Notes: generated by a model not told the origin, from the letters alone. 32,000 nt of DNA from Candidatus Methanoperedens sp. (GCA_041494705.1 JBGQBI010000003.1:296637-328636), one strand, 5' to 3'. Positions 2,305 to 31,895 are shown, counted from the stretch's first letter. Numbers and translations: made by a program.

Positions 2305-2307
2305 AAG

Positions 2308-3579
2308 ATGCCAGCAATGGAAAAAAATAATGCACGCTATTCAAGCAAAAGAATTAATATCGATTCATTATTAAAAAAGGAAGATGCTTATATCAGTAAG
2401 AAACTGGATTTGAACAGCCTGCTTGGGGCACCTGAATCCACCCGTACTCGGGTTTTACAGCCTGTTCATGGACAGGATAAGAAGGTCAGGCACATCTCGC
2501 CCGGCGAATATATAGTCGTAATAAGCATGATCCTTACCTCAATATATCTGCTGGTTACATCATTTTTCCCTCTTGTATACAATATTGTCACATCTTTTGA
2601 ACCTATAAATTTCCTGATGAATTTACTATACTTCATTCTGGGAATCGGGAGCCTCGCTGGCGCTTTTTTAGTACTTAAAAAGGGGACGCATCTTGAACAT
2701 ATAGCAAACGATACTTTTGATGAAGTGGTTTATAAACGCCTTGAGCCCGTACTGCGTGATGTGGCCGATGTTCAGGTAGGATTGACCGATGTTCATTCCC
2801 AGCTGGAAATGATGAACCTGAATCTTGAAAAAATAGGAAAGGTCAAAGAAACGGTAACCCGGGAAATCCACCAGGAAGCTGCGCCGGCCCAGACTTCGAT
2901 GTACATTAAATACATCGTATTAATCAATGTCACGCTTGCCACATTTTTATTCATGCTGCAATACCCGCTGGAATATATTCCCTATGCAGTTACCATAGTG
3001 TATATTGTCTGGTGGGCAGTAATTACTGCCGAATTCAAGCTCTGGAATGTGGAATCGGTATGGATGTGGGTTTTTGGTCCGATTTTAGTACTCCCGGTGT
3101 ATTCGATTATCATGAACGCCTATCTGCGTGATTACCAGATGTTCGGCTCATTGTTCATCGGGCTTGTCATTTATGTTTTCGTATATTATTCATGGTGTTC
3201 CAATATGGTACGGGGCGTGCTCCCTCTTGACCTTCATATAGCCCTCGCGGAATTAAAAAAGAAACTTAAAGAAAAACCTGAAGAAGAAACACCTAAACCC
3301 AAGATTACAATGCCCCGTATTGAATTGAAAATGCCTTTTAAATTTAATTTATACCATCTTGGAATTTCAATGGTAATAGGGTCAATTATTCTATTCGCTT
3401 CTGCCTGGTTCGGTTTTTCTATAGAGCACAATTTAATACCCAATGTCTCGTGGAAAAACTTTGGCTTGAATGAGTTTACGTGGAAACCTCTGTATTCCTA
3501 TGCCTTAACCCTCTTGGGTATGCTTTTCCTCGGGCTGGGTTTCAGGATATTGTTGAAATTCCGGAGGAGCCAGGATTGA
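2308..3579 (+). CDS. Polytopic membrane protein of unknown function (~8 TM segments, central coiled-coil-like loop, Lys/Glu/Pro-rich linker)
   Basis: This is a 423-aa ORF starting 3 nt after the ATPase stop. It has long hydrophobic stretches (YIVVISMILTSIYLLVTSFF, LLYFILGIGSLAGAFLVL, IVLINVTLATFLFML, VYIVWWAVITA, WVFGPILVLPVYSII and others). I recognise no family. Confidence 0.55.
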   Translation: MPAMEKNNARYSSKRINIDSLLKKEDAYISKKLDLNSLLGAPESTRTRVLQPVHGQDKKVRHISPGEYIVVISMILTSIYLLVTSFFPLVYNIVTSFEPINFLMNLLYFILGIGSLAGAFLVLKKGTHLEHIANDTFDEVVYKRLEPVLRDVADVQVGLTDVHSQLEMMNLNLEKIGKVKETVTREIHQEAAPAQTSMYIKYIVLINVTLATFLFMLQYPLEYIPYAVTIVYIVWWAVITAEFKLWNVESVWMWVFGPILVLPVYSIIMNAYLRDYQMFGSLFIGLVIYVFVYYSWCSNMVRGVLPLDLHIALAELKKKLKEKPEEETPKPKITMPRIELKMPFKFNLYHLGISMVIGSIILFASAWFGFSIEHNLIPNVSWKNFGLNEFTWKPLYSYALTLLGMLFLGLGFRILLKFRRSQD

Positions 3580-5318
3580 AGAGACTCATTATCTTAATCA
3601 TTTTTTTATTATTGTGGCCAGCTGTTTGCGCTGCTGAAAAAATAAATGGTCTGGATGTTGAGTGGGAATCCGGGACATCATATACCCTTAGCTGGACGAA
3701 TCCCACAGTCACCGTAGGAGATTATGTCATACGGGTTTTTGATTTTGACTGGAAGGGAAATGCGGTCATATCAGTTACAAGAAAAGGCGTGACCCAGAAC
3801 GGAATAATATCCAACCAGGGTGAAAACTTAGTTATGGATTTTACAGGAAATAGCACCACTTTCCAGGGAATCCTGATTGGTATGGGAGATGTTTCAAATT
3901 ATGTATCCATCCCTGGAACCATCCCAATCAACGTTGGAACATTCCCATGCTGCCCTCAGGCCACTATCAGTATTGCGGTCTCAAAAGATCTTACCCAAAA
4001 AAAACCGGTATTGGAGCTTGATATGGAAACGAACTGGGATGGAGGTCTGGGTAGAATATCAGATATGAATTTTGAAATCAAAAATACTGGCGACGCAGAT
4101 CTTTCCGGGGGCAATGTTACGATAAATTTAGACGGCTTAATACCCGCCAATGATAGGCAATTATCAGATAATGCATTAACATATAACCCCAAAAAAGGTA
4201 TAGTAACCAAAGGATGGAGCACTCCGCTTTTAAGGAATAATTCGGTCTATTTTAATATATCGGTAAAGTCACCAGTCCCGTCGAATAAAACATCCTTTAC
4301 GATTTCAGGTCAGAGTTATTTTAAGGATTCAAGCGGTAATCTGTATTCTGCAACGAAGTCTGAAACCGTCTCCCTTACCCCTACTTTCAGTTTAACGAAA
4401 TCAATAAGCCAGTATTCGATTCTTGGCGATAGGTCGTATGGGGATATCGATAAATTCTTCGCTCTTAGTAATGTGAGTGTTGTAAATTTAAATGTTGCGA
4501 ACACGCAAAGCTATTCATTAAAATCGGTGACTCTCACGGATACCGTGATGAATGATTTTGATTTAATAAACGATTCCATAGCCCCAACAAAAGATTTTAA
4601 ATTAATAAATAATAATACATTGCAGTGGGTTTTTGACCTTAATTCAAGTGAATCGAGGGAATTTAAATACCATTTAACCGCCCGGAAAATAGGAAGTTTT
4701 ACAGCGCCTGGTGCGGTGGCGCAGTGGAATGCATGGGGAGTTACCGGAAAAGCTTCTTCAAACATGCCTGCAACACGGGTATATGGTGTTTATGTGGTAG
4801 TGACCAGGAAAACTGATAAAACCAATCCAAAGTTGAACGAAAGCCTGAATGTAACAACTACATTGGAGAATATAGGCGACTTTCCTGCGGGATTTAATGC
4901 AACGGATATTCTTCCGAAAAATACCACATTCATTTCAGGAACCACGACCTTCAGCGGTTATTTGTACCCCAAGTCTGAACCTGTTTCTTTCAATTATAAT
5001 TTGTCCGTTGATAAACCGGGTGATCTGGAATTTCCATCACCTGTAATCACTTTCTGGAAAAAAGATTATGATGGGTCATTTGGTGTAATACCCGGCAATA
5101 AAATCACGGTCATCGGCCCCTCTCTCTTAGCAGTGGCTGCCGCGGCTTCAGGCCAGGCCAATATCTCCCAGGCTCCCACAGCCACCCCCATCCCCAAGAG
5201 TTTGCTTGATATCATAGATGAGAAGGTTCCCTGGCTTGAGGGCGCTGTCCCGATAATCATGTTAATTGTTGCTATTATTTTAATGCTTATGCTGCATGTT
5301 ATTAACAGGGAATCATGA
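3576..5318 (+). CDS. Secreted, C-terminally membrane-anchored cell-surface protein with DUF11/CARDB-like repeat domains and many N-glycosylation sequons
   Basis: A TTG at 3576 gives M-KRLIILIIFLLLWPAVCAA|EK, a textbook signal peptide, and overlaps the upstream TGA (TTGA). Repeated beta-domain signatures are present (FEIKNTGDADLSGGNVTINLDG, LNVANTQSYSLKSVTLTD, TTTLENIGDFPAGFNATDILPKNTTFISG). A Thr/Pro/Ala linker and a C-terminal TM helix (VPIIMLIVAIILMLMLHV) follow. Confidence 0.65.
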   Translation: MKRLIILIIFLLLWPAVCAAEKINGLDVEWESGTSYTLSWTNPTVTVGDYVIRVFDFDWKGNAVISVTRKGVTQNGIISNQGENLVMDFTGNSTTFQGILIGMGDVSNYVSIPGTIPINVGTFPCCPQATISIAVSKDLTQKKPVLELDMETNWDGGLGRISDMNFEIKNTGDADLSGGNVTINLDGLIPANDRQLSDNALTYNPKKGIVTKGWSTPLLRNNSVYFNISVKSPVPSNKTSFTISGQSYFKDSSGNLYSATKSETVSLTPTFSLTKSISQYSILGDRSYGDIDKFFALSNVSVVNLNVANTQSYSLKSVTLTDTVMNDFDLINDSIAPTKDFKLINNNTLQWVFDLNSSESREFKYHLTARKIGSFTAPGAVAQWNAWGVTGKASSNMPATRVYGVYVVVTRKTDKTNPKLNESLNVTTTLENIGDFPAGFNATDILPKNTTFISGTTTFSGYLYPKSEPVSFNYNLSVDKPGDLEFPSPVITFWKKDYDGSFGVIPGNKITVIGPSLLAVAAAASGQANISQAPTATPIPKSLLDIIDEKVPWLEGAVPIIMLIVAIILMLMLHVINRES

Positions 5319-5950
5319 AAGCTGAGAATATTATCGGCTTAGCGATTCTGGTGGTATTCGGACTTATTGTGGGCATACTATTCTCTGTTTATTCGCATGA
5401 TAAGCAACTCAATATTAAATCTGGTAAAACGCCAGGATACCCCAATAACACGCAAATCAATGGCGACAAACAGGTCGAGGGTAACACCCAGGTTTCGAAC
5501 TTTACAGAGCTGGTTTCAAATGGAAAAAACATTTGCGAAGGATGCCATCTTTCGGGAAAGAAAATCTATCCCCAGGCATACCAGGTAAAACAGCACGTCG
5601 AAGGGGGCGCATATTGCCTCGAATGCCATACGATTGACCATAAAGTGCATCCCATGAGCCCGAAAGATAAAAACGTGACCTGTGAAAGCTGTCATGGGGC
5701 AGCATCCCCACAGGTGCCAACTTTTCGCAACGGTACAATATCATGCGCAAATTGCCATGATTACCCTGACCCGCTAAAGCCAAGCAATGGTAATCTTATT
5801 GTGATACACCGCGAGAGAAATGTGGATTGTATAAAATGCCATCTGGATTCAACTGCCTCTTGTCTTAAGTGCCATAATGAAATTAAAAGCGATGATAAAT
5901 GGACAAAAAGGCTTAATCATTTCAATACGATTGTGAAGACAGCCCAATGA
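5315..5950 (+). CDS. Membrane-anchored hexahaem c-type cytochrome
   Basis: Six CxxCH motifs occur in 211 aa: CEGCH, CLECH, CESCH, CANCH, CIKCH, CLKCH. There is an N-terminal TM anchor (IIGLAILVVFGLIVGILFSVY). The ATG overlaps the upstream stop (ATGA at 5315-5318). Confidence 0.85.
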   Translation: MKAENIIGLAILVVFGLIVGILFSVYSHDKQLNIKSGKTPGYPNNTQINGDKQVEGNTQVSNFTELVSNGKNICEGCHLSGKKIYPQAYQVKQHVEGGAYCLECHTIDHKVHPMSPKDKNVTCESCHGAASPQVPTFRNGTISCANCHDYPDPLKPSNGNLIVIHRERNVDCIKCHLDSTASCLKCHNEIKSDDKWTKRLNHFNTIVKTAQ

Positions 5951-10529: not shown

Positions 10530-11861
10530 TTATTGCCCTATAACCCGCATTTTTGAAACCCTCACCGTCGGCGTAATCACATTCCCCACATTCCGAACAT
10601 CCATCCCCACGCCGTCGATAGTCCTTAAAAGCTCGAAGATATTCCCGGAAATCATCATAGACTTGATGGGCGAAGCAATCTCGCCATCCTTTACCAAAAA
10701 CGAATTTCTCGCCTCGACTGAGAAATCACCCGAAATTGGATTGGCTGTATGTGCTCCTATTACAGTATTGACAATAACGCCGTCTTTTGTCTCGCCAATC
10801 ACATCAAAAGAAGGATGTTCAATTATCAGGTTGCGTATTCCTATCGATGGCGTCGAGGTGTACGAGCCGCGCACCGCATTGCCAGTGCTTTCTCTTTTTT
10901 CTTTTCCTGCAGTGTAGCAATCGTAAAGGAAAGACGACAGAATACCTTTATTCACAACAGCGATTTTCCGGGACGGCGTACCCTCGTCGTCGCACGAGGA
11001 TGTCCCCAGACCACCGGCGAGCGTTCCGTCATCGATAATAGAAAGGTCATCAGCTGCAATGCTGCTATTGATTTTCCCGACCAGCGATGAACGTCCTTTC
11101 TGGACATTATCCGCGTTTAATGAAGTTACAAGTGTATTTTCAAGAATATCTGCAAAAGCTAGGGGCTCAAGAAGCACAACAGTATCACGCGTTTCCGTGT
11201 TTATTCCGTTTCTTGACCGCGAAGCAAGAGTGGAGGCTTTTTCACCGATTTTATAAAAATCAATGTCAAGCTTCCGGGACATGTCAAATTCAGATGCCGT
11301 CGAAAGAGGCGTATCCTGTGTTGCTGTATCCACGGTCGCCTGGATGGCCGTATCCTCTTCCTGAACCTCAATGCCGTTTGAGTTCAAAACAAGTTTAGTT
11401 GAACTCCCGCATGAGAAATGCCCCGAAGTGGGCGAAACCGTGGGAACGGATTTTACACCTTCTATCATCATGGAAGCATAATCCATACATGATTCAATTT
11501 CAAGAGCCGCAAGCTTCTTATCAAAAATGCCTGCAACTTTTGCAGGTTTGCTTTTTTGCGGAAGACCTGACCACTGCGGGTCGCTGCCCCTGACTTTAGC
11601 GGATTTTACCGCGAGATTGCAGGCCTCTTCAATGCGCTGCTCATCATTGGTGCTTGAAAAACCCACCGCGCCTTTGACTATAGCCCTTATCCCGATGCCT
11701 GAAACCATGCTCTCTTTGGCGAGGTCGATTACATCCCGGTGTATGTCGATTGAGATAGACTTGCCTTTTACGCAATAAATCTCGGCTTCATCTGCCCCGG
11801 CATTTCTTGTGAGCAATAGTGCCTTATGCGCTATTTCAAAAATATCCTTCATGGGAACCAT
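10530..11861 (-). CDS. TldD/PmbA-family metalloprotease / modulator
   Basis: The 443-aa ORF has family-typical C-terminal segments (GNAVRGSY, GAHTANPISGDFSVEA, ISGNIFELL). It is convergent with the inositol synthase gene. Confidence 0.8.
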   Translation of the reverse strand: MVPMKDIFEIAHKALLLTRNAGADEAEIYCVKGKSISIDIHRDVIDLAKESMVSGIGIRAIVKGAVGFSSTNDEQRIEEACNLAVKSAKVRGSDPQWSGLPQKSKPAKVAGIFDKKLAALEIESCMDYASMMIEGVKSVPTVSPTSGHFSCGSSTKLVLNSNGIEVQEEDTAIQATVDTATQDTPLSTASEFDMSRKLDIDFYKIGEKASTLASRSRNGINTETRDTVVLLEPLAFADILENTLVTSLNADNVQKGRSSLVGKINSSIAADDLSIIDDGTLAGGLGTSSCDDEGTPSRKIAVVNKGILSSFLYDCYTAGKEKRESTGNAVRGSYTSTPSIGIRNLIIEHPSFDVIGETKDGVIVNTVIGAHTANPISGDFSVEARNSFLVKDGEIASPIKSMMISGNIFELLRTIDGVGMDVRNVGNVITPTVRVSKMRVIGQ

Positions 11862-11956
11862 TAATTAAAATTAAAGCATGATAAACTTTGCCCACATTAA
11901 ATTAAATAAAACTTTTGTGCCTCTAAAATATCATAGCGAACTTATGTGCATACCTA

Positions 11957-12616
11957 TTATAAGCTGCATCTTCGAACAACCCCAAAGCCACGGGAAACAG
12001 ATTTGCCAATACCAAGATATTCAGGTATCATGAAGTTTATCTGAAATTCGCCCTTAAAACCAATGAGAGGAATGCCTTTTGAATAAACTTTTATGGGTGA
12101 TACTTTTGTTCTTACTTTAATTTGGTTAAGAACGACGTATCCGAGAGACTTGGAAATTGAGAGAAGGTTTCCTGCAAGGATTTGATGTAAAAGTTTCACT
12201 TTGTTCTTTGGATCGAATTTAATATAGGAATCATAATTTATCTCATTCAAAGCTATCCAGGGAACAATAAACATATACTGCATAAAGCTATCAGAACAAC
12301 CAAATTCCTGGCTTTTTTCAATTATCTGACGTTCTTCAATTTTGTAAGTCATCTTACCAAGGATAATATCTTCGATATCCCAGGAAATTTCTTTTAAAAT
12401 CTCAGCCCCTTCATCAATTCCAAGTATTACCGGCGTACCTTCAATTATCTTGTATTGCACTTTCGGATATTGGTAAGAGTTCTTACCATTTTCTGCATGC
12501 TGGTGCAGAATAGGATAGTCTTTGAACCTGTTTCCGATGAAGCCCCGCAGTTTCTCAGGGCTTTCAGTTACAGGGTCTTTGGTTTTCAGTATTAGGGTTA
12601 GGGTCTGGATGTCCAT
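11957..12616 (-). CDS. cas6: Cas6-family CRISPR endoribonuclease (paralogue associated with the type III-like module)
   Basis: The C-terminal glycine-rich RAMP loop is IPEYLGIGKSVSRGFGVV. The N-terminal part (LRGFIGNRF...ILHQH...YQYPKVQYK) is collinear with the second cas6 at 22966-23658. Confidence 0.7.
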   Translation of the reverse strand: MDIQTLTLILKTKDPVTESPEKLRGFIGNRFKDYPILHQHAENGKNSYQYPKVQYKIIEGTPVILGIDEGAEILKEISWDIEDIILGKMTYKIEERQIIEKSQEFGCSDSFMQYMFIVPWIALNEINYDSYIKFDPKNKVKLLHQILAGNLLSISKSLGYVVLNQIKVRTKVSPIKVYSKGIPLIGFKGEFQINFMIPEYLGIGKSVSRGFGVVRRCSL

Positions 12617-12680
12617 TTTTTTAGTGTTCTACACTGATTCTATATGGCGCCTAAGTCATATATAGTTAAATTATTATATT

Positions 12681-13478
12681 TCATATTTGTTTTATTTTTA
12701 TATCTACCTTTCCAAATCCCTTTGACTTGTAACCACCAATGGTTTTTATGCTTGCAAAGCGGTCAATAATAAACTCCTTGATGATCGGATCTATTGACCG
12801 TGGATGTCCTGCAAGCCATGCATCTCCTCCAGTATAATCTTTAAGATTTCTCGCTTTTCCAAGTTCTCTATCTCTAACAGTGTCTTTAATTATAACTGTC
12901 AAGGTACCCATGAATTTAGCACCGTCAGGCACCAACTGGTATGGTCTATTTGTCCCCTGCTTTACGGTCTGGATTGCCCTATCAATATTTGCCGAATATA
13001 GTTCATTAACCGTTGTTTTGGCATACAAAAACGGCACTTTTACAAATCCCTCAAGTCCGTTTGCGCCAAGGAAATAGCAAACCGGACAAATTTCGTGCAA
13101 TGCTTTGCATTTTCTATCGCAGGGATAGTGACAGCCATCTCCTTTGATATCCCCTCCGGTCGGCTGGAATAAGTTATAGAATCTATATAACCCATTCACC
13201 ACAAGCTGATTTTCATCAGGAGAAAGCTTTGTTGAAGGTATGCAAGGCTGAAGATTTTTATCCGTCCATTTTTTTTCAGCCCTATTAAAATAGGTATCAA
13301 TCAGGTATCTCTCAATCTCACAGCGGTAAGCGCCTTTGAGGGTAGAACCCGGAACAACCGCCTTATTGCCCACAAGGGCTATCGGGTTATCTATTCCCGA
13401 TAAGGGACTTGCTATCCCCCCGATTCGAATAGGTTCTAAAGTTGTCAATTCAATTTCAAATTCTTTCTGTTCAATCAT
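12681..13478 (-). CDS. cas7: Cas7-like RAMP backbone subunit (Csm3/Cmr4 family) with a Cys-rich insertion
   Basis: IGGIASPLSGIDNPIALVGNKAVVPGSTLKGAYR matches the Csm3/Cmr4 N-terminal pattern, including the Asp used for target RNA cleavage. The C-terminal G-rich loop is IGGYKSKGFGKV. A Cys cluster (CHYPCDRKCKALHEICPVCYFLG) sits in the middle. Confidence 0.7.
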   Translation of the reverse strand: MIEQKEFEIELTTLEPIRIGGIASPLSGIDNPIALVGNKAVVPGSTLKGAYRCEIERYLIDTYFNRAEKKWTDKNLQPCIPSTKLSPDENQLVVNGLYRFYNLFQPTGGDIKGDGCHYPCDRKCKALHEICPVCYFLGANGLEGFVKVPFLYAKTTVNELYSANIDRAIQTVKQGTNRPYQLVPDGAKFMGTLTVIIKDTVRDRELGKARNLKDYTGGDAWLAGHPRSIDPIIKEFIIDRFASIKTIGGYKSKGFGKVDIKIKQI

Positions 13479-13482
13479 TTTC

Positions 13483-14502
13483 TCAAACCTCCGTTATACT
13501 TATCAAACTTTTTATTATAAACCGTGCAGTTTTTCTGTCTATAGATGGATATTTTTCAATGATTCCAAGTACATGAAGAAGCGTTTCTGCCTGTTGCCTC
13601 GTATCCCTTCTGTTCTTTCTCTCCAACAAAAATGTCCTGGTCATGGTTAACCCCTCCCTTTCGAGAATATCCCCAACTGTATTCTGAAACTTATTTGATA
13701 AATACCCAATTTTTACATTTTTCTTTATTTCTTCAATGACCTTTGCCGCAATATCTTCCGTTTCTGTATTCATTGTTTTGTCACTCTTTGTTTTTAGTAA
13801 AAATCCTGGCGCTTCAACCATGCTGCCTTCAAACAATGAAAGCACATACTTACCTTCTGTTTCGGATGTCGGTTCAAAAAGATATCCGAAATTTGCGTTT
13901 TTCACCTTTTTAATTCCAAAAACATCATGCAAAAATCTGGTTGGCTTACCTTCTTCAAGTACATTTTTAATATCCTCTTTTCCAGCTTCAAAATCCGCAT
14001 CATTAAGCTTAAAAAGTGGCAATCTGGTATTCAATTCACCCTCTCTGGAATCGGCACATGGATCAGTTCCCTTAAAATTCAATTTGCACTCCCCAAAACC
14101 TTTGGATTTCAATCCACCCATCCAGAAACTTATCTCTCCTTTCTGGGACCATATCTCTTTCACATCTTCATTTTCTTTAAGATACACCTCGCCTTCCACA
14201 TTGTAAAGATATTCGGTATATATAGGAATAATACTTGTTTCAATTGACCTGTTTCGTGGAGAATAAGTGAGTGTCTTAATGTGATTCTCCCTGAACTCAG
14301 TCTCATCCTTAAAAAGAAAATGTCCACATGCATGGATTTGCTTTGACTTACCGGCATTTTTACTGTTTCCAAATTTCGCCTGAAGCGCACCTGTAATCTG
14401 GCTATAAGGAATTGTTGTAATAACAGGGCGATACTGTCCCTTTTTAAACCTTTCTCCCAGGATGAGCAGATCAGAACTAAAACCAAACTTAAGGATGTTC
14501 AT
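13483..14502 (-). CDS. cas5: Cas5-like RAMP (Csm4/Cmr3-like) with a ~95-aa predicted-helical C-terminal extension
   Basis: The N-terminal TIPYSQITGALQAKFG is a Cas5-type signature, and the G-rich loop is MGGLKSKGFGECKL. The C-terminal region (TEDIAAKVIEEIKKNV...RQQAETLLHVLGIIEKYPSIDRKTARFIIKSL) is helix-like. Its start overlaps the Cas10-like stop by 4 nt. Confidence 0.55.
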   Translation of the reverse strand: MNILKFGFSSDLLILGERFKKGQYRPVITTIPYSQITGALQAKFGNSKNAGKSKQIHACGHFLFKDETEFRENHIKTLTYSPRNRSIETSIIPIYTEYLYNVEGEVYLKENEDVKEIWSQKGEISFWMGGLKSKGFGECKLNFKGTDPCADSREGELNTRLPLFKLNDADFEAGKEDIKNVLEEGKPTRFLHDVFGIKKVKNANFGYLFEPTSETEGKYVLSLFEGSMVEAPGFLLKTKSDKTMNTETEDIAAKVIEEIKKNVKIGYLSNKFQNTVGDILEREGLTMTRTFLLERKNRRDTRQQAETLLHVLGIIEKYPSIDRKTARFIIKSLISITEV

Positions 14503-16520
14503 TCTTCATCCCCCATGATTTTTGCATATGTCAAAATTGTTTTAAAATCAATCTTTTTATCCTGCGCTCTGATTGGCTCAAAAGCATTGTAAACTCTATA
14601 ATCTCCTCTATCATAAACAAGAACCTTTGCCAATTTCTCTGAGGTCTCCGATATCTTGGCAAGCTTATGAAGCTGCTTGGAGGCAGGTATTTTGAAATCT
14701 TTTATTAAGACTTTGAGCTGGTTTAAAGTGAGGTGCATCCCACCCCTTCCAATCAAAATAACATTCACATCATTTTTTGGGTTCTCAAGGATTTTCCAGT
14801 GCCTAAAAAAGGCAAATTTTACATTGGATACTGAAATTGAGAGGGTAACTGGAGATTTTTGTTCCTTTAGCTCGGGGAAGCACTCCATAAATATGTTACT
14901 ATATATTTCCAGGATATCTTTTATCTGGCTTATTTTTTCGAGTTTGATACAAAGAAAATCATTAAGGATAGGCTGGAAGTTCTCGGTTTTAAAATATTCT
15001 TCTAAATTTTTGTTGAAATTTTTGAGGAATAAATCATAATCTTTCTGGAATTCAGCAAGAACGGAAAAGCGTAGTTCAATTTTTTCAGAGATTGCACCTT
15101 TAAGGGTATTTTGGATATATTTGTCAAGTAGTGTTTGTAATGTTTCTGCCAGAGATTCAATATCCAGATTAATTTTGATCCAAGCAATTTTGGAATTAGG
15201 TTCTTCTTTATACCATTGTTCAATTTTAGGAGCAGGTGGCTCTTTTCTAAAATCTCTAATAGAATAGCAACTTTCACAGAGGTGTTCCGTTATTCCGCTT
15301 TCTTCATCGTTCCAATCTTTTTCTGCTGGATGCATTTGACAGATTTCACAAAGCTTATTGATTGTGATTGATAGATTACCATAATAATTGCTTATAGGAA
15401 AACGGCTCTCAAACTCCAAACGGTCTTTATCTAACTCTTTTAATTTGTTTGTTTTTAAGTTGATATCCGGTATTTTTTCAAGGTTTACCCGTTGTTTTTT
15501 GATGCTATTTTCAAAACGTTGAGATTCTTGTTCTTTAATTATTTTCGGTGTAAGATTTGCATATTCCAGGATCGTATTTGCTCCTTCGATATTAACAATG
15601 AAACCTCTTTCTATAAAGGGTTTAACAAGTTGTGTAATTGATTCATCTGGAGGGAGTAACGCCAAGAATTGAGTAGAAGTATTAAGGATAATATTATCAT
15701 TTTGTGAAAATTTAGATATTTCATTATTTAAAATTTGAAAAATATGTAAATCCTTAACTCTAACAGGATAATGTGGAAATTTAATCTGAACCCTTATGAT
15801 ATTTAAATTCCACTTTTTTCTGGCGTCATTTGGACTGTTCGCAGTTTTACCTCCAAAGGAGAGAGTACCTTTAGAGACTTCTTTGGTATTTGCTTCGAAG
15901 AATCTAAACAGCTTTCCAACAAGGTTTGAATGAGTAAAAAGACTGGTAATATTCTTAGGTGGTTCAAAATCTTCTGGTCTCTCCAGCATATTTTTATTAA
16001 AATTCTGGAAATATTGCTCTTTATCTTGAACAACATTTGTAAAAGCAACCAATGATTTAAAATCATTCTCAGAAGAAAATAGTTTAATTTCTTCGTTGTA
16101 AGGCTTCCACAACTTTAAGAGAGTCCTGTTTTCAAATTTAATATCAATTTTTCCAATCTCTTTATTTGTCAAAGTTCTTGAAATAGATGATGCCATATAA
16201 TCAGCTAAACATTGCAAAAAAACTGGATACTCTTTCTTCTTTTCTGCATATTCTGAGATCAAATCCTTTGTTGATTTATCTGGAGGATCATGGTGATATC
16301 TAATATTTTTGTATGTAAGGGTTTCAGTAAAATTTACTCCAAATAACCTCAGATAGTGTAATTCTTCACCTGTTTCCTTATTTATGCATAAAAAATTGTG
16401 GTTCCAATCTATTTTTTCAATAGGAATACCAAGTTTTTGCGAAATAAATTGCCTAATCCAATAACTATCCACAAGCTTCCCAATATCATGAAGTTCTGGA
16501 ATAATTTTATCCTCAGACAT
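14499..16520 (-). CDS. cas10: Small Cas10-like type III large subunit with an N-terminal HD domain and no GGDD cyclase motif
   Basis: HD motifs are ELHDIGK, RYHHD and LADYMASSISR. The Cas10 Palm1-type SLFTHSNLVGKLF is present, as is the treble-clef zinc finger CEICQ-x23-CESC. The Palm2-like IAWIKINLDIESL has N-x-D instead of D-x-D. No GGDD or GGDE occurs anywhere in the 673 aa. Confidence 0.75.
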   Translation of the reverse strand: MSEDKIIPELHDIGKLVDSYWIRQFISQKLGIPIEKIDWNHNFLCINKETGEELHYLRLFGVNFTETLTYKNIRYHHDPPDKSTKDLISEYAEKKKEYPVFLQCLADYMASSISRTLTNKEIGKIDIKFENRTLLKLWKPYNEEIKLFSSENDFKSLVAFTNVVQDKEQYFQNFNKNMLERPEDFEPPKNITSLFTHSNLVGKLFRFFEANTKEVSKGTLSFGGKTANSPNDARKKWNLNIIRVQIKFPHYPVRVKDLHIFQILNNEISKFSQNDNIILNTSTQFLALLPPDESITQLVKPFIERGFIVNIEGANTILEYANLTPKIIKEQESQRFENSIKKQRVNLEKIPDINLKTNKLKELDKDRLEFESRFPISNYYGNLSITINKLCEICQMHPAEKDWNDEESGITEHLCESCYSIRDFRKEPPAPKIEQWYKEEPNSKIAWIKINLDIESLAETLQTLLDKYIQNTLKGAISEKIELRFSVLAEFQKDYDLFLKNFNKNLEEYFKTENFQPILNDFLCIKLEKISQIKDILEIYSNIFMECFPELKEQKSPVTLSISVSNVKFAFFRHWKILENPKNDVNVILIGRGGMHLTLNQLKVLIKDFKIPASKQLHKLAKISETSEKLAKVLVYDRGDYRVYNAFEPIRAQDKKIDFKTILTYAKIMGDEE

Positions 16521-19015
16521 TTACTCACCCTTTAAGGAAAAATTGCTACAATTAATGACTTAACTCGTACTTATTCTATATAACAGTTCTCATAAATTAA
16601 TGTTTCAGTTTGTCTTTTTAAAAACTAGTTTTTTCTGAGAACCAATTGAATAAAGCGATTGTAGATTACAATTTACATAATAATGTTTCAATCCTTGTTT
16701 TAGTGGATGTGCCTCTTGAATTAAAAATCTATTCATGGATGGTGAAGAAGGGTTAATGTTTCAATCCTTGTTTTAGTGGATGTGCCTCTTGAATGCTGAA
16801 TGGAAACGGCTGGGGTATCGCAAAAGCGGGAGTAGAGTTTCAATCCTTGTTTTAGTGGATGTGCCTCTTGAATGCAACAGCTTATAGCAGAATATGACAA
16901 TAAACATAAGTTTCAATCCTTGTTTTAGTGGATGTGCCTCTTGAATATAACTGTATGTCCTCGATGTCATTCGTGGGCGAGGAGTTTCAATCCTTGTTTT
17001 AGTGGATGTGCCTCTTGAATATTATCAAGAGTTCCTGAAAACGCAAAATATCTGGAAGTTTCAATCCTTGTTTTAGTGGATGTGCCTCTTGAATGTCAGG
17101 GAACGGGAAGAACGAAAACGGGAAGTTCTGGTTTCAATCCTTGTTTTAGTGGATGTGCCTCTTGAATGAGAAAGAGATTGATGATGATATTTTCGCTATT
17201 GGTTTCAATCCTTGTTTTAGTGGATGTGCCTCTTGAATTCTTGATTGCCCGGATGGATCTATTAATTGAACAGAAGTTTCAATCCTTGTTTTAGTGGATG
17301 TGCCTCTTGAATTGCAAAAATCTGGTTTGAATTATTCGGCATTACTACGGTTTCAATCCTTGTTTTAGTGGATGTGCCTCTTGAATGAAGAGTTTTGTAC
17401 AATGCAGCAAGGGCGTAATGAAGTTTCAATCCTTGTTTTAGTGGATGTGCCTCTTGAATCTTTCAGTTCATCTGTTTTTTCAACTGCTTTGATGTTAGTT
17501 TCAATCCTTGTTTTAGTGGATGTGCCTCTTGAATCCCTCTTCACGGAAGGAAAGGCAGGAGAACTACAGTTTCAATCCTTGTTTTAGTGGATGTGCCTCT
17601 TGAATAGTTGAAAAACCCGTGCCCGCTTGCGAGAATGTCAGTTTCAATCCTTGTTTTAGTGGATGTGCCTCTTGAATATGACAGCTCCAACAATTCCGGA
17701 TATCTTTGTATGTTTCAATCCTTGTTTTAGTGGATGTGCCTCTTGAATAATTATCGAAAAAACCTTATACGCCGACGAAACAGGTTTCAATCCTTGTTTT
17801 AGTGGATGTGCCTCTTGAATTATGCTCTGGTGATATCATGGTCTCGAGAGCATATGGTTTCAATCCTTGTTTTAGTGGATGTGCCTCTTGAATGTCTTTC
17901 TGTATTCCATCAAGTCCACGATCCTGAGTTTCAATCCTTGTTTTAGTGGATGTGCCTCTTGAATCTGATCCGTTTTTTTTATTCCCTGGAAGAACACCAG
18001 GGTTTCAATCCTTGTTTTAGTGGATGTGCCTCTTGAATTTTCTATGGTGTGTGCGGTCAGGCCCCTGACCTGACAAGTTTCAATCCTTGTTTTAGTGGAT
18101 GTGCCTCTTGAATCGGGTATGCGGTTTCATAATCACGCCTGAACCTTAGTTTCAATCCTTGTTTTAGTGGATGTGCCTCTTGAATGCCTCGAATCCGCGC
18201 AAGGCGTCGGATATCGTGGGTTTCAATCCTTGTTTTAGTGGATGTGCCTCTTGAATTCTTTTTCAGCAACAGGAGGAACACATGCCACAGAGTTTCAATC
18301 CTTGTTTTAGTGGATGTGCCTCTTGAATCCGCCCATATAGCGCAAAACAACCCGCCCATCTGGGTTTCAATCCTTGTTTTAGTGGATGTGCCTCTTGAAT
18401 TCAAGCGTCTGCCGCTCACGGACTATGAGAAGGCAGTTTCAATCCTTGTTTTAGTGGATGTGCCTCTTGAATTATATTGCTTTTTTGGTGCGACCACAAG
18501 AGATATAGTTTCAATCCTTGTTTTAGTGGATGTGCCTCTTGAATAATATTTTAGAAAAGCATGTCGGCAGGCATATCAAGTTTCAATCCTTGTTTTAGTG
18601 GATGTGCCTCTTGAATACAATCAAGAAGTCATGTACATTCTCAGTCTACTAGGTTTCAATCCTTGTTTTAGTGGATGTGCCTCTTGAATGAAAAGCAGGA
18701 GGAGTGGAAGCCTATATATATATAAGTTTCAATCCTTGTTTTAGTGGATGTGCCTCTTGAATCCGAGCGCAGCGGAAATTATCTCATTTGAAATAATAGT
18801 TTCAATCCTTGTTTTAGTGGATGTGCCTCTTGAATAATCAGGTGCAGGAGCGCCGTAATCGAATCCTTCATGTTTCAATCCTTGTTTTAGTGGATGTGCC
18901 TCTTGAATTACACCTTTTTCCCCTTTTGAATTGGTACATTTTTGTTTCAATCCTTGTTTTAGTGGATGTGCCTCTTGAATAGGCTCGATGATAAGAACTC
19001 TCCATGCGAAAGCTG

Positions 19016-19052
19016 GTTTCAATCCTAGTTTTCGTGGATGTGCCTCTTGAAT
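19016..19052 (-). repeat. Variant CRISPR repeat (repeat 33 from the left) with two substitutions
   Basis: GTTTCAATCCTaGTTTTcGTGGATGTGCCTCTTGAAT: plus-strand position 12 is T>A and position 18 is A>C. Confidence 0.95.
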
Positions 19053-19086
19053 ATCCAAAGTCCGAACATAACTTTCCAAGCTTACA

Positions 19087-19123
19087 GTTTAAATCCTTGT
19101 TTTAGTGGATGTGCCTCTTGAAT
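19087..19123 (-). repeat. Variant CRISPR repeat (repeat 34 from the left) with one substitution inside the 8-nt handle
   Basis: GTTTaAATCC...: plus-strand position 5 is C>A, so the sense-strand handle becomes ATTTAAAC instead of ATTGAAAC. Confidence 0.95.
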
Positions 19124-20789
19124 ATAGCGGGTATATTTATATAGTGTCTAACCAATGTTGTTTCAATCCTTGTTTTAGTGGATGTGCCTCTTGAATGTCC
19201 GAAGCGGATCAAGCGCGTGGACTGTGGCTTCAGTTTCAATCCTTGTTTTAGTGGATGTGCCTCTTGAATTTTCTCAATGGAAGTGCGTACAAGAACAATG
19301 TGACGTTTCAATCCTTGTTTTAGTGGATGTGCCTCTTGAATCCTTGAGGGTGAGTAGCGAGGCTACCGCATATTATAGTTTCAATCCTTGTTTTAGTGGA
19401 TGTGCCTCTTGAATTCAGGTACATCCCGCCGAAGCTGCACCTGTTCCGCGGTTTCAATCCTTGTTTTAGTGGATGTGCCTCTTGAATCTCCGGCTGCCGG
19501 GCAAAGCGGCCATTGTTCAAAGTTTCAATCCTTGTTTTAGTGGATGTGCCTCTTGAATCTGGTTCATGAAGGGATACCCGATTTCAAGGAGCTTAGTTTC
19601 AATCCTTGTTTTAGTGGATGTGCCTCTTGAATGTACATTTATGAATTGGAAGTAATCGTTAAACTTGTTTCAATCCTTGTTTTAGTGGATGTGCCTCTTG
19701 AATACGGCGGAGATAGCGTCTTCGGAGTACAGTACGAGGTTTCAATCCTTGTTTTAGTGGATGTGCCTCTTGAATCCCATATGATTTTTTCAGACAGTTT
19801 CAGCGCAGGTGTTTCAATCCTTGTTTTAGTGGATGTGCCTCTTGAATTCCTCAATCGAGGAAGTCAGCCGGGCAGAAATGAGTTTCAATCCTTGTTTTAG
19901 TGGATGTGCCTCTTGAATGAAGCGGATCAAGCGCGTGGACTGCGGTTTCGTGAAGTTTCAATCCTTGTTTTAGTGGATGTGCCTCTTGAATGCCCGGCAG
20001 CGCGGGAGCCGCAAGCGCGAACAACAGTTTCAATCCTTGTTTTAGTGGATGTGCCTCTTGAATTTTGTCGTGAAGAAATGGCGGAAGCAATGTGGAGGTT
20101 TCAATCCTTGTTTTAGTGGATGTGCCTCTTGAATTACGCTCATAAATCCTCAGGAGGGATTGATTCAAAGTTTCAATCCTTGTTTTAGTGGATGTGCCTC
20201 TTGAATGAAGAGGCGACCGCGCGGTTGAAGGAGTTCATGAAGTTTCAATCCTTGTTTTAGTGGATGTGCCTCTTGAATACAAGGAATATCAATGTTGATT
20301 CCACAGAGAAAAAAAGTTTCAATCCTTGTTTTAGTGGATGTGCCTCTTGAATCAGGACGGGGTTTGTAGTGTGCAGGCCCTCGAATACCAGGGTTTCAAT
20401 CCTTGTTTTAGTGGATGTGCCTCTTGAATGCGCTGAACGCATACAAGGGAAACGGCTTTCTGGAGTTTCAATCCTTGTTTTAGTGGATGTGCCTCTTGAA
20501 TTTTTGGTACCATTCCTTATCCTAGGAACGAGAAAGTTTCAATCCTTGTTTTAGTGGATGTGCCTCTTGAATCATCTGCGATATGGTTGTTTGGTAATCA
20601 GACAAATGGTTTCAATCCTTGTTTTAGTGGATGTGCCTCTTGAATTGTGATCTCGCTTCCGGAACTCGCCTCATCACCGAGTTTCAATCCTTGTTTTAGT
20701 GGATGTGCCTCTTGAATTCCAGGTTCCTATAGGATCGGTGTAGAGAATATTAGTTTCAATCCTTGTTTTAGTGGATGTGCCTCTTGAAT

Positions 20790-20897: not shown

Positions 20898-22770
<1,873 letters not shown>

Positions 22771-22965
22771 GTTTATTCCCCCTGAACGCTTTGCGATTTT
22801 TGCACCGCAGAGAACGCAAAGGACGCAAAGATTATGCTTTATATTGTCATGTTGTTTTCGTTTCTTAATATATTAACCGCAGATAAACGCAAAACTTTAT
22901 GAAAGTTTTATCAAACGAGGGGTATGCTTCGCATACCCCAACACTGCGTAAACCGAAGTTTCGGT
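22771..22965 (-). promoter_or_regulatory. Unusually long (195 nt) cas6-cas1 intergenic region with three hairpins, a TATA-like element and repeated ACCGCAGA-N-AACGCAAA motifs; probable terminator plus internal regulated promoter
   Basis: The hairpins are AAACCGAA-GT-TTCGGTTT (22950-22967), GGGGTATGC-TTC-GCATACCCC (22919-22939) and AAAACTTT-ATG-AAAGTTTT (22891-22909). The motif ACCGCAGAGAACGCAAA occurs at 22804-22820, followed by ACGCAAAG at 22823-22830, and ACCGCAGATAAACGCAAA occurs at 22876-22893. TTAATATATTAA is at 22865-22876. Confidence 0.35.
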
Positions 22966-23658
22966 TTATGAACGCAGATGCCTGATTGCATAAGGCTCCT
23001 CTTTTGCCAGACCTTTAACAGCCCCGAAGCCTCTTGAAACTGATTTCCCGATGCCAAGATAATCAGGTATGAGGAAGTTGGTACAGAATCCTCCGATGAA
23101 GGTCATCACGTTTACGTCTTTTAACCTGCTTTTCCTGATATTTACATCAACATCGCATTTTATCTTTTCGGGTACCTGATAATCTAAAGATTTTGACACG
23201 GAAAGAAGGTTCCCAATGAGCGTTTTTCTAAGGAATTCATTTCTATCCTCATGACTCTTAAGACCATAGTACTTCATGTAATTCTCCTGGTTGAGCGCAA
23301 GCCATGGCGTGGCGAACTCGTAGGAATGTATCTTTTCCGAAATCCCAAACTCCTGGTTCCTGACAGAGATGCCCTTCTCTACGATCTCATAAACCTCCTC
23401 GCCAAGTTTTATTTCATCGTATTTATCATAAACCAGTTTTAAAACGTCGGCGCCGTCATTGATTCCGATGACCATGGGCGCGCCGTCTATCATCTTGTAC
23501 TGCACGAGGGGATAGCGATAGATGAGCCTGTCGGCGCTGTGCTGGTGGAGGAGGGAGTATTCGTTGAATTGGGTGGCGAAGAAGCCGCGAAGCTCTGCTG
23601 AGGTGCCCTGGATGGGGCGGGTGGAAGCGAGGGTGAGGGTGAAGGTTTTGAGGTTCAT
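22966..23658 (-). CDS. cas6: Cas6-family CRISPR endoribonuclease (paralogue linked to the adaptation and type I-B genes)
   Basis: The C-terminal G-rich loop is IPDYLGIGKSVSRGFGAV. It is collinear with the cas6 at 11957-12616 (LRGFFATQF...LLHQH...YRYPLVQYK). I prefer the ATG at 23658 (MNLKTF...); the ORF track uses an upstream GTG at 23670. Confidence 0.75.
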   Translation of the reverse strand: MNLKTFTLTLASTRPIQGTSAELRGFFATQFNEYSLLHQHSADRLIYRYPLVQYKMIDGAPMVIGINDGADVLKLVYDKYDEIKLGEEVYEIVEKGISVRNQEFGISEKIHSYEFATPWLALNQENYMKYYGLKSHEDRNEFLRKTLIGNLLSVSKSLDYQVPEKIKCDVDVNIRKSRLKDVNVMTFIGGFCTNFLIPDYLGIGKSVSRGFGAVKGLAKEEPYAIRHLRS

Positions 23659-23746
23659 ATTTTTATGCACTATGTTTTATCACTTTGGTCTGCTACTGCA
23701 TTGCGGCGCTGGGGTTGCGACCCCAGACCCCGGTGAGGCGCCGCCG
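23659..23746 (-). repeat. Copy 1 of a duplicated junction segment (AT-rich part plus a GC-rich part containing GGCGCCGCCG), immediately upstream of cas6
   Basis: ATTTTTATGCACTATGTTTTATCACTTTGGTCTGCTACTGCAT... aligns with 24779-24840 (TTTTTTTCATGCACTATAGTTATCA...CTTTGGTGTATG...TGCAT). Both are followed by GC-rich sequence containing GGCGCCGCCG (23737-23746 and 24852-24861). Confidence 0.5.
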
Positions 23747-23855
23747 ATGGCGGGGTTTTCTGTAAGCAGATTGTTACATGTTAACCAGTTTTGAAATTCT
23801 AGCGCTGCTATTTTTGATGCTTATTAATTTGTGAACATTTTCACTTATGAGGTCT

Positions 23856-24287
23856 TCAATCTTTAATTTCTATGTACTTGTCAATGGTCTCTATGAATTC
23901 ATAAAAATCCTTCAATTCTATATTTAGATAAGAATATGCCCTTGAATCATCTATATGTCCATATTGATGCACAAGCAAATTTCGAAATCCAACAAGTTCT
24001 TCAAGCCTGGTGGAAAGTGACCCTGTTATCACTCCATTTTCAGCAAGTTTCCTGATACTATCTTTACTATCGGTCGGTATTCCAAATCCTTTTTCAGATA
24101 TGATCAAATTACAGATGTCAAGTAAATTTTCACTTGCCAGTTGGAAAGCGCGTTCACACGCTCTTTTCCTCAGACCGCTGTTCAGGTATTCCTCTTTTTC
24201 TTCTGGAAGGTATTCCTCAAGTTCTCTCAGGTATTTCTCCAGTTCATCCATCTTTTCTAATATTCTATCTTTATCCAAGAATATCAT
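23856..24287 (-). CDS. hepT: HEPN-domain (DUF86 / HepT-type) toxin
   Basis: The Rx4H motif appears as GFRNLLVHQY. The 143-aa helical protein has a start that overlaps the stop of the upstream nucleotidyltransferase gene by 4 nt. Confidence 0.85.
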   Translation of the reverse strand: MIFLDKDRILEKMDELEKYLRELEEYLPEEKEEYLNSGLRKRACERAFQLASENLLDICNLIISEKGFGIPTDSKDSIRKLAENGVITGSLSTRLEELVGFRNLLVHQYGHIDDSRAYSYLNIELKDFYEFIETIDKYIEIKD

Positions 24288-24733
24288 CCCAATCTGGCTC
24301 TAACACGTTCCATAACATGCTTATGATAGTCCTTAGTGAGCCTTTTATATCGTTCATATTCTATATCATTTATCTTTGAAAGTGTTAATATGTAATACAT
24401 GTCCTGCGTGTAAAGCACCCTGCCTTCGAGAAATACCCTTTTGCGTATATAAACAGGCAGTTCATCAATGAATGAAATATCGATATTCTCAGGAACTGAA
24501 TTGTTAATGGATATCCTCTCTTTCAGGGGAATTTCAATATCATGTTTTGGTATGATACATATATCTATGTCGCTCTTTTCTTTTTCAGTTCCTCTGGCTT
24601 TTGAACCAAAAAGGATGATGGAATGAACAAGCCTGGACCTCTTGAGTTTTGAGATTGCCTCGTTTATGTCTTCGTTTGATATATTTTGGTCGTTCCTTTT
24701 TGTCACAGGGACAATTTGATTTTTCATTATCAT
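24284..24733 (-). CDS. mntA: Minimal nucleotidyltransferase (MNT / MntA-type) antitoxin
   Basis: It carries the GS-x-AR-G ... D-x-D signature (ILFGSKARGTEKEKSDIDICII) and is paired with the HEPN gene. Confidence 0.85.
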   Translation of the reverse strand: MIMKNQIVPVTKRNDQNISNEDINEAISKLKRSRLVHSIILFGSKARGTEKEKSDIDICIIPKHDIEIPLKERISINNSVPENIDISFIDELPVYIRKRVFLEGRVLYTQDMYYILTLSKINDIEYERYKRLTKDYHKHVMERVRARLG

Positions 24734-24778
24734 TCTCTCTGCTGTATAATTATTTAAAGACTGGCTCTTCTACATCTA

Positions 24779-24861
24779 TTTTTTTCATGCACTATAGTTA
24801 TCATTTTTGTTAACTTTGGTGTATGTAATTATTGCATGTCTCAGGAAATCCGGCGCCGCCG
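24779..24861 (-). repeat. Copy 2 of the duplicated junction segment, immediately upstream of mntA
   Basis: See copy 1 (23659-23746). The orientation is direct, and the two copies bracket the mntA-hepT pair. Confidence 0.5.
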
Positions 24862-24962
24862 CAAAGTCCCTGCGCGCCGTCTGTGATGCCGCGCCGCGCA
24901 TGGGTGTGGAGGATGGGGGGGGCGGGGATGCAGGCGGAGGCGAGGGTGAGGTTGAGGTTCAT
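24810..24962 (-). pseudogene. Decayed 5' fragment of a cas6 gene (50-codon remnant ORF) starting 10 nt after the cas3 stop
   Basis: The minus strand reads ATGAACCTCAA-CCTCACCCTCGCCTCCGCC..., against cas6 (23658 downward) ATGAACCTCAAaaccttcaCCCTCACCCTCGCTTCCACC.... The peptide MNLNLTLASACIPAPPIL...AQGLCGGAGF compares with Cas6 MNLKTFTLTLASTRPIQG...AELRGFFATQF. It ends after 50 codons, is far more GC-rich than its surroundings, and has no G-rich loop or rest of the fold. Confidence 0.55.
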
Positions 24963-24972
24963 GGTCCTAGTT

Positions 24973-27708: not shown

Positions 27709-27714
27709 ATTTCC

Positions 27715-28542: not shown

Positions 28543-28544
28543 TT

Positions 28545-29618: not shown

Positions 29619-29619
29619 T

Positions 29620-31895
<2,276 letters not shown>

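Follow-up and report, generated by a model that had tools for sequence, protein, structure and literature searches.

The stretch of DNA analysed here, 32,000 nucleotides (nt) from Candidatus Methanoperedens sp. (GCA_041494705.1, JBGQBI010000003.1:296637-328636; hereafter the window), carries on its minus strand four tightly coupled genes for proteins of 673, 339, 265 and 219 amino acids (aa), which lie 3′ of a large CRISPR array and of a type I-B CRISPR-Cas system. An original prediction, made from the sequence alone, had described these genes as a highly reduced type III effector module of Cas10-like, Cas5-like, Cas7-like and Cas6 proteins "with nothing else", possibly an undescribed variant. 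The six-frame list of open reading frames (ORFs) of the window returned all four exactly as drawn there, sizes and junctions included: the first two overlap by 4 nt (14499-14502), the second and the third are separated by 4 nt (13479-13482), and the third and the fourth by 64 nt (12617-12680). The module is AT-rich, as had been stated, with a GC content of 0.32-0.39 versus 0.45-0.52 for the housekeeping genes at 7-12 kb. The analysis presented below indicates that it is very probably an interference module of subtype III-F, composed of cas10f, a cas5-cas11 fusion, cas7f and cas6b, so that the seemingly absent small subunit Cas11 is to be found at the C-terminus of Cas5.

Assignment of the module to subtype III-F

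Pfam and NCBIfam are nearly blind to the four proteins, recognizing only RAMPs at 1.7e-5 in the 265-aa protein, a weak Csx7/Csm3 similarity and Cas6b, and public annotation lists the products of the two largest genes, Cas10 and Cas5-Cas11, as "hypothetical protein" only. PADLOC, a library with subtype-specific CRISPR profiles, gave III-F matches to every effector protein, each being the best for its region. The 673-aa protein matched Cas10a|Cas10f at 5.3e-96 over profile positions 2-584 of 585, the N- and C-terminal parts of the 339-aa protein matched Cas5_IIIf and Cas11f, respectively (Table 1), and the Csm3-like 265-aa protein matched Cas7_IIIf at 4.4e-59 over residues 6-263. The 219-aa protein was recognized as Cas6b both by PADLOC (1.4e-69, residues 2-217) and by Pfam, which found the two domains Cas6b_N (PF17955, 1.3e-31) and Cas6b_C (PF17262, 8.7e-36). 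The roles proposed earlier for the four proteins agree with these matches, as does the remark that III-F is the closest known subtype.

The reference for III-F is the four-gene set Tlet_0097-0100 of Pseudothermotoga lettingae (PMC8036902). The Pseudothermotoga locus reached by our Cas7 profile search (L056) agrees with it in gene set, encoding proteins of 660, 208, 194 and 282 aa, which match the same PADLOC III-F profiles as those of the window. Direct comparison by phmmer related the window Cas10 to the Pseudothermotoga Cas10 at 2.4e-49 (residues 1-633 versus 1-620), Cas5 to Cas5 at 2.7e-21 and Cas7 to Cas7 at 8.9e-27, while a family hidden Markov model (HMM) of Cas11 recognized the Pseudothermotoga Cas11 at 5.9e-28. 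All effector proteins thereby score confidently within one defined subtype and are homologous gene for gene to its reference locus, at variance with the idea of an undescribed reduced type III variant. For a broader view, 48 genome loci were retrieved with a Cas10 alignment, and iterated HMMs built from the window proteins were applied to them. All complete loci of this set follow the order cas10-cas5-cas11-cas7 with a single Cas7 gene; synteny of homologues thus bears out the single Cas7 but not the lack of cas11, which is always present in complete loci, either separate or fused.

Two Cas11f profiles of PADLOC, both labelled CAS-III-F, divide the family by length. The long one fits Pseudothermotoga (1e-82), and the short one (PDLC01224) fits the Hydrothermarchaeum locus L011 (8e-32), the close relative L005 (1e-22) and the C-terminus of the 339-aa protein, which means that the branch with short Cas11 already belongs to the curated III-F set. 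Subtype III-F is described as having Cas10 with an active-looking HD domain and a dead cyclase and as lacking effectors responsive to cyclic oligoadenylate (cOA) (PMC11229360). Since this is the very combination seen here, the absence of ancillary genes needs no special explanation, and the module looks reduced because III-F is minimal by nature, with its single Cas7 gene and without cOA effectors. Neither a second Cas7 gene nor a stand-alone cas11 occurs in the module, where the 265-aa protein is the sole RAMP/Cas7 ORF, and a scan of 21 of the larger window ORFs revealed no domain of the CARF, SAVED, Csx1 or Csm6 kind; in these respects the earlier description stands.

Fusion of Cas11 to the C-terminus of Cas5

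The Cas5_IIIf and Cas11f matches on the 339-aa protein do not overlap, and the small subunit is therefore present as a C-terminal domain of Cas5. What the original prediction took for the absence of cas11 is the absence of a stand-alone gene only; the statement that the module contains nothing else does not hold, and the suggestion of an undescribed variant loses its support with it. In the AlphaFold2 model of the fusion (predicted local distance difference test, pLDDT, 78.6), a beta-rich RAMP body occupies residues 1-235 and helices follow over 247-338. The best structural match found by Foldseek is chain A (767-770 aa) of the Synechocystis III-Dv complex (8s9v, 8s9x, 8s9u), taken by its length and by the published description (PMC11026444) to be the Cas7-Cas5-Cas11 fusion subunit; Cmr3 (6s8b_H, 3x1l_B), Cas5 of I-A and I-D, and Csm4 (6ifr_B) come next. 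A sequence search of PDB with a 14-sequence Cas11 profile returned no match.

The origin of the fused gene is best seen from the split relative L005, whose Cas10 is 68% identical to that of the window and whose genes encode Cas10 (684 aa), Cas5 (244 aa), a 103-aa protein, Cas7 (265 aa), an Mrr-domain protein and Cas6b. Residues 246-339 of the window protein match the 103-aa protein, located in the cas11 slot, with a phmmer E-value of 1e-36, and stand-alone proteins of 92-121 aa encoded in the same slot of the more distant loci L011, L012, L048, L054 and L015 with 4e-13 to 6e-6. In L005, cas5 ends with ...FLTEGGEV-TAG, followed after two codons by ATG-AAC-GAA (MNEQTDD...), one frame being kept throughout; the window reads ...FLLKTKSDKT-M-NTETED... 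without a stop. Loss of the cas5 stop codon thus fused cas11 in frame to the C-terminus of Cas5. The possibility that the fusion is an artefact of assembly or a frameshift was considered and rejected, given that four independent assemblies contain this ORF in identical form and that 23 clusters have homologous fused ORFs.

Apart from the window, fused forms occur in L008, L009, L010 and L014, the other complete loci among the 48 related ones having a separate cas11 for 92-207 aa. The Cas11 domain is carried by 23 of the 119 Cas5 clusters, in about 80% of the family clusters cas11 is separate, and within the fused proteins the domain is conserved. A crude neighbour-joining tree built on the Cas5 domain intersperses the two forms and shows no fewer than 8 changes of state. 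The separate cas11 gene drawn for the III-F reference is not found in the window; fusion versus separation is a polymorphism of gene architecture inside the family and not its boundary. Relatives are few: an exhaustive search of 1.84 billion representatives returned only 126 at E <= 1e-3, comprising Cas5-only and Cas11-only proteins and about 5 fused ones, and some 22 stand-alone representatives of about 85-130 aa match residues 247-337 only. Two proteins of 451-452 aa (P0353 and P0360), which exceed the Cas5-Cas11 fusions in length by about 110 aa, have an N-terminal match to the Cas5 domain (residues ~14-156) and may represent a different or larger fusion. No description of this III-F fusion was found in the literature searched.

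Translation signals survive in the linker. The window has a Shine-Dalgarno (SD)-like GAGTGA 7 nt 5′ of an in-frame ATG (Met243), which is the ancestral cas11 start codon; GAGTGA is likewise present in L009, and in the fused linkers of L008 and L010 AAAGGGTGA stands 4-8 nt before an in-frame ATG, the same motif being used at the cas10 start. Since the fused linkers have retained the in-frame ATG and, as SD-like motif, GGGTGA or GAGTGA, free Cas11 could possibly still arise by internal initiation within the fused gene. We consider it a tentative and rather doubtful proposition that fused cas5-cas11 is a two-product gene and not a neutral loss of the stop codon; alternatively, like that of III-Dv, the complex may make do with just one tethered Cas11. 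With two products, one mRNA would supply both the Cas5-Cas11 anchor, present once in each complex, and several copies of free Cas11 for it, and the small-subunit filament would be nucleated by the tethered copy. With a single tethered Cas11, such III-F variants would be fixed-length, minimal, RNA-cleaving (by Cas7 D30) and HD-armed effectors.

Cas10, Cas7, Cas6b and the genomic setting of the module

The AlphaFold2 model of the 673-aa protein (pLDDT 89, predicted template modelling score, pTM, 0.89) retrieved with Foldseek exclusively Csm1/Cas10 chains as its top 49 matches, the best being Csm1 of III-A at about 5e-11 and a TM score of about 0.5, while the sequence search of PDB with this protein gave no match; its earlier designation as Cas10-like is thereby secured by both the PADLOC profile and the fold. 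The HD motif ELHDIGK contributes H11/D12, accompanied by H76 and D107, and a zinc finger is formed by C391, C394, C415 and C418. Invariant in a 31-sequence Cas10 alignment are E9, H11, D12, K15, H76 and D107 of the HD domain together with all four cysteines, while the position of the GGDD hairpin is occupied by GRGGMH in the window and by IGKGEM in the family consensus. By these motifs the HD nuclease looks active and the cyclase/polymerase palm is predicted to be inactive, as had been read before.

The cas10 gene is mosaic. From about 15070 to the end of cas6b (11955-15068) DNA identity amounts to 90.7% with Methanoperedens L009 and to 84.8% with L010, while the 5′ ~1450 nt of cas10 (15068-16520), encoding HD, the first palm and the zinc finger, are essentially unalignable to these two loci (~48-50% protein identity overall); L005 and L008 can be aligned with the window from end to end at 75-80%. 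Such a pattern is suggestive of recombination, by which the N-terminal two thirds of Cas10 may have been swapped. Two Methanoperedens Cas10f proteins of 705-722 aa (P0013 and P0016; L010 7998-10166) contain about 90 additional residues, inserted immediately behind the HD domain (alignment columns 190-260) and absent from the window Cas10 and from other family members.

The single Cas7 is presumed to form the multi-copy backbone. Its D30 (GIDNP) aligns with the catalytic Asp of Thermococcus onnurineus Csm3 (6iqw_C, GGIDNP) and with a III-D Cas7, the marginal PDB sequence matches of Cas7 having been used for this motif alignment alone. Among loci L005-L054, residues 27-33 (window 13380-13400) mostly read G-[I/V/A]-[D/E]-[N/S]-P where Cas11 is short (92-123 aa) or fused, one locus having His, and the loci with long Cas11 (169-207 aa), the Pseudothermotoga type included, mostly have E-K-K at the catalytic position of Csm3. 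Judged by this residue, the branch of the window probably still cleaves target RNA, and the reference branch may not.

The module Cas6b is predicted to be its dedicated pre-crRNA (CRISPR RNA precursor) endoribonuclease. It shares only 43% identity with the I-B-linked Cas6b of the same window versus 78-95% with the III-F-linked Cas6b of L005, L008, L009 and L010; the III-F-linked proteins of all five loci are 72-95% identical to each other and 43-48% identical to the separate I-B-linked lineage, and this Cas6b lineage travels with III-F genes. Between cas7 and cas6b, L005 (9680-11149) and L008 (5657-7096) contain a gene absent from the window, encoding an Mrr-type restriction endonuclease protein of 479-489 aa with N-terminal Pfam Mrr_cat matches at 5e-9 and 6e-8, which may be a III-F ancillary nuclease.

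Table 1. Features of the module, of the CRISPR array and of the type I-B system, with positions in the window.
Feature	Position	Strand	Basis
cas6b (219 aa)	11957-12616	-	ORF list
cas7 (265 aa)	12681-13478	-	ORF list
cas5-cas11 fused gene (339 aa)	13483-14502	-	ORF list
Cas11 (small subunit) domain, residues 246-339, six-helix bundle	13486-13767	-	PADLOC Cas11f PDLC01224 ("CAS-III-F; effector_SS") 2.2e-16 on residues 253-336
Fusion linker, residues ~239-249	13756-13788	-	modelled disordered, pLDDT <50 over 240-249
Cas5 (Csm4/Cmr3-like RAMP) domain, residues 1-238	13789-14502	-	PADLOC Cas5_IIIf 7.1e-41 on residues 3-238
cas10 (673 aa)	14499-16520	-	ORF list
Trailer-to-cas10 spacer region (164 nt)	16521-16684	-	AT-rich; sequence read directly
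CRISPR array, 57 repeats of 37 nt, spacers 34-42 nt	16685-20789	-	repeat search and direct reading
Type I-B system	20898-31812	-	Pfam matches
I-B cas4	20898-21497	-	Pfam
I-B cas2	21494-21835	-	Pfam
I-B cas1	21802-22770	-	Pfam
I-B cas6b	22966-23670	-	Pfam
HepT/MNT pair	23856-24733	-	Pfam
I-B cas3	24973-27708	-	Pfam
I-B cas5	27715-28542	-	Pfam
I-B cas7	28545-29618	-	Pfam
I-B cas8b	29620-31812	-	Pfam

The array has the repeat ATTCAAGAGGCACATCCACTAAAACAAGGATTGAAAC in minus-strand reading. Each repeat ends on this strand in ATTGAAAC, the expected 8-nt 5′ tag, from which it follows that transcription of the array and that of the four genes share one direction; the last, trailer-end repeat of the array lies 164 nt 5′ of the 673-aa ORF, so that co-orientation and the position of the module directly downstream are both confirmed. 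Just two of the 57 repeats are substituted, being adjacent to each other in the middle of the array (19017-19053, GTTTCAATCCTAGTTTTCGTGG..., with two mismatches, and 19088-19124, GTTTAAATCC..., with one), and the other 55 are identical, the trailer-most copy included, which is unusual for a terminal repeat. The region between trailer and cas10 contains a TATA-like TTATATAG about 45 nt 5′ of the cas10 ATG and the SD motif GGGTGA 4 nt upstream, and may possibly serve as the module's own promoter. A scan of the module for sigma-70 promoters and terminators gave what is expected for shuffled sequence, the models being bacterial and not applicable to an archaeon.

The Pfam matches of the I-B genes, taken with those of the module Cas6b, agree with the earlier view of a type III module with its own Cas6 placed in a I-B supercluster. 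Most likely the array is common to I-B and III-F effectors, and the I-B system supplies adaptation (Cas1, Cas2 and Cas4) for it. Methanoperedens L010 has the same super-operon order, namely HepT, cas6b, cas1, (cas2), cas4, an array, then cas10f, cas5-cas11, cas7, cas6b and a second array; in L011 the III-F genes are followed by cas6, cas1, cas2, cas4 and an array; and L005, L009 and L010 have a near-identical repeat directly 5′ of cas10f. A toxin-antitoxin pair of a HepT-like RNase and an MNT nucleotidyltransferase is inserted in the I-B operon between cas3 and cas6b, HepT being found at the same place in L010.

On the 3′ side the module is followed by TldD/PmbA and then by inositol-phosphate, CDP-alcohol and tryptophan genes and a cytochrome/BatD cluster. 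TldD/PmbA (10530-11861) was rejected as a member of the module, its adjacency not being conserved in L005, L008 and L010. The cluster at 1312-5950 encodes an AAA ATPase-like protein, a 423-aa protein without Pfam match, a protein of 612 aa with a BatD domain and a multihaem cytochrome c of 211 aa (c7/c3-like), which fits a Methanoperedens-type host. When proteins are clustered at 90% identity, TrpB and the inositol-phosphate synthase of the window group with proteins from Ca. Methanoperedens metagenome-assembled genomes.

The analysis itself shows the order of the genes, their homologies and synteny, the limits of the domains, the state of the motifs and the junction of the fusion; to this a mechanism may be added by analogy. 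Cas6b would cut the repeats of the shared array 8 nt from their 3′ end, giving CRISPR RNAs (crRNAs) with the 5′ ATTGAAAC tag, to which Cas5 would bind beside Cas10, with the single Cas7 polymerizing in several copies along the guide. Cas11, tethered to Cas5 and possibly also free, and the helical C-terminus of Cas10 would jointly line the target-strand side. Once a complementary transcript has paired, the HD nuclease of Cas10 would be activated and cut single-stranded DNA in its vicinity, D30 of Cas7 probably cleaving the bound RNA at 6-nt intervals, and no cOA would be made, hence no collateral arm of CARF effectors. In the published classification the target of III-F is given as "DNA?", and DNA cleavage by HD is only predicted (PMC8036902).

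Alternative readings and relation to known systems

Several points weigh against the assignment to III-F or restrict its meaning. The III-F criteria applied derive from secondary sources, profile labels and general background. No experimental study of any III-F system was found in the literature searched, so that all mechanistic steps rest on analogy. The Pseudothermotoga clade differs in having long Cas11 (~190 aa) and Lys instead of Asp at the catalytic position of Cas7, and the window is accordingly a distinct branch within the III-F family. One Cas5-tethered Cas11 per complex is too few for the canonical multi-copy Cas11 filament at guides of about 35 nt. Finally, III-H, which is called "distantly related to III-F" and whose genes are those of Cas10, Cas5 and Cas7 alone, was set apart by its published description.

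Subtype III-H is the only serious rival, though in our estimate a very improbable one. It was introduced as a "new type III subtype" (Altae-Tran 2023) and later given its name (Makarova 2025), with Ca. Argoarchaeum ethanivorans (RPGO01000026, AEth_01085) as reference. Its Cas10 is described as having an active HD but a dead polymerase, and as accompanied by a single Cas5 and a single Cas7; a diverged Cas11, the only one, takes the place of the Cas10 C-terminus, and no Cas7 aspartate is conserved. The published description fits the gene count of the original prediction, and a distant relation to III-F is claimed for it. The reference organism and Methanoperedens, besides, belong to the same broad group. 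Yet the window fails both III-H features examined: its Cas11 domain is attached to Cas5 and not to Cas10, which can be aligned collinearly with III-F Cas10s until shortly before its C-terminus, and the catalytic D30 of Cas7 is present, Asp or Glu being kept in most of the short-Cas11 clade. Moreover, the short Cas11 profile matched by the window carries the label CAS-III-F, and in close relatives cas11 is a gene of its own. The matches listed in three protein searches did not include any named Argoarchaeum protein, and a scan of GTDB species genomes with the near-invariant motif PE[LMI]HDIGKL yielded no Argoarchaeum locus, though it did not return Pseudothermotoga either.

That the module works without any Cas11 as a further-reduced subtype, which is how it was first read, could be argued from the lack of a stand-alone cas11 ORF and from the failure of Pfam and NCBIfam to recognize almost anything in the two largest proteins; the match to Cas11f and the homologue split in frame in L005 refute this reading and leave it a negligible probability, the Cas11 domain being homologous to stand-alone III-F Cas11 genes and all proteins falling within III-F. 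Very improbable, too, is a decaying or domesticated remnant that no longer acts as an immune effector, with the fusion as a step of decay and HD or Cas7 activity lost. The dead cyclase, AT-richness relative to housekeeping genes, the mosaic cas10 and the frequent flips between fused and unfused forms on the crude tree, which could mean relaxed constraint, would suit such a remnant, but the module consists of four intact, tightly coupled ORFs and adjoins a 57-repeat array of mostly identical repeats, conservation is seen in the motifs of HD, zinc finger and Cas7 as well as in the Cas11 domain of the fused proteins, and several Methanoperedens-like genomes have preserved the same layout with a nucleotide identity of 75-91%.

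With III-F as the favoured assignment, the main value of the analysis is corrective: a seemingly stripped-down type III locus turns out to be an instance of III-F, and the current understanding is not overturned. Mildly new are the recurrent fusion, the surviving in-frame ribosome-binding site and ATG in the linker, and the catalytic Asp of Cas7 kept in the clade of the window. Since no experimental III-F study was found, the Methanoperedens clade offers useful material, including a III-F branch that has kept this Asp where the reference branch has not. With cas5 and cas11 occurring naturally both fused and split at ~70% identity, it could be tested how the stoichiometry of Cas11 is set, and the module's own Cas6b, the large array and the I-B adaptation genes provide a complete context in which reconstitution would be straightforward.

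Compared with known systems, the module shares with the Pseudothermotoga III-F reference the order cas10-cas5-cas11-cas7, HD together with an inactivated cyclase, a single Cas7 and the absence of CARF/SAVED, and all four effector domains are homologous, Cas10, Cas5 and Cas7 directly and Cas11 via the family HMM; it differs in the short (~90 versus 194 aa) and Cas5-fused Cas11 and in Asp versus Lys of Cas7. It has its own cas6b and adjoins an array, whereas arrays are reported to be absent from most III-F loci (PMC12669027). III-Dv of Synechocystis PCC 6803 (8S9T, 8S9U, 8S9V and 8S9X) likewise has Cas5 and Cas11 on one polypeptide joined by a flexible linker (PMC11026444), but there a Cas7 domain is also fused N-terminally, further Cas7 fusions and Csx19 are present, no subunit is repeated, the crRNA is fixed at 37 nt, Csm6 and Csx1 act as accessory proteins, and the sequence identity of its subunit to the window fusion is only 8-11%. 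III-H, known to us by description, resembles the module as a minimal effector of archaeal hosts with active-looking HD, dead polymerase, one Cas5, one Cas7 and no cOA pathway, whereas its Cas11 replaces the C-terminal domain of Cas10 and it has neither conserved Cas7 aspartates nor adaptation modules, the window having kept the Asp and having both array and adaptation genes linked. With III-A Csm (Csm1-Csm5) the module has in common the Csm1 fold of Cas10, a Csm3-like Cas7 with the GxDNP catalytic motif and the expected 8-nt 5′ tag, and it departs from III-A by the absence of Csm5 and Csm6, the inactive cyclase and the fusion of Cas11 to Cas5.

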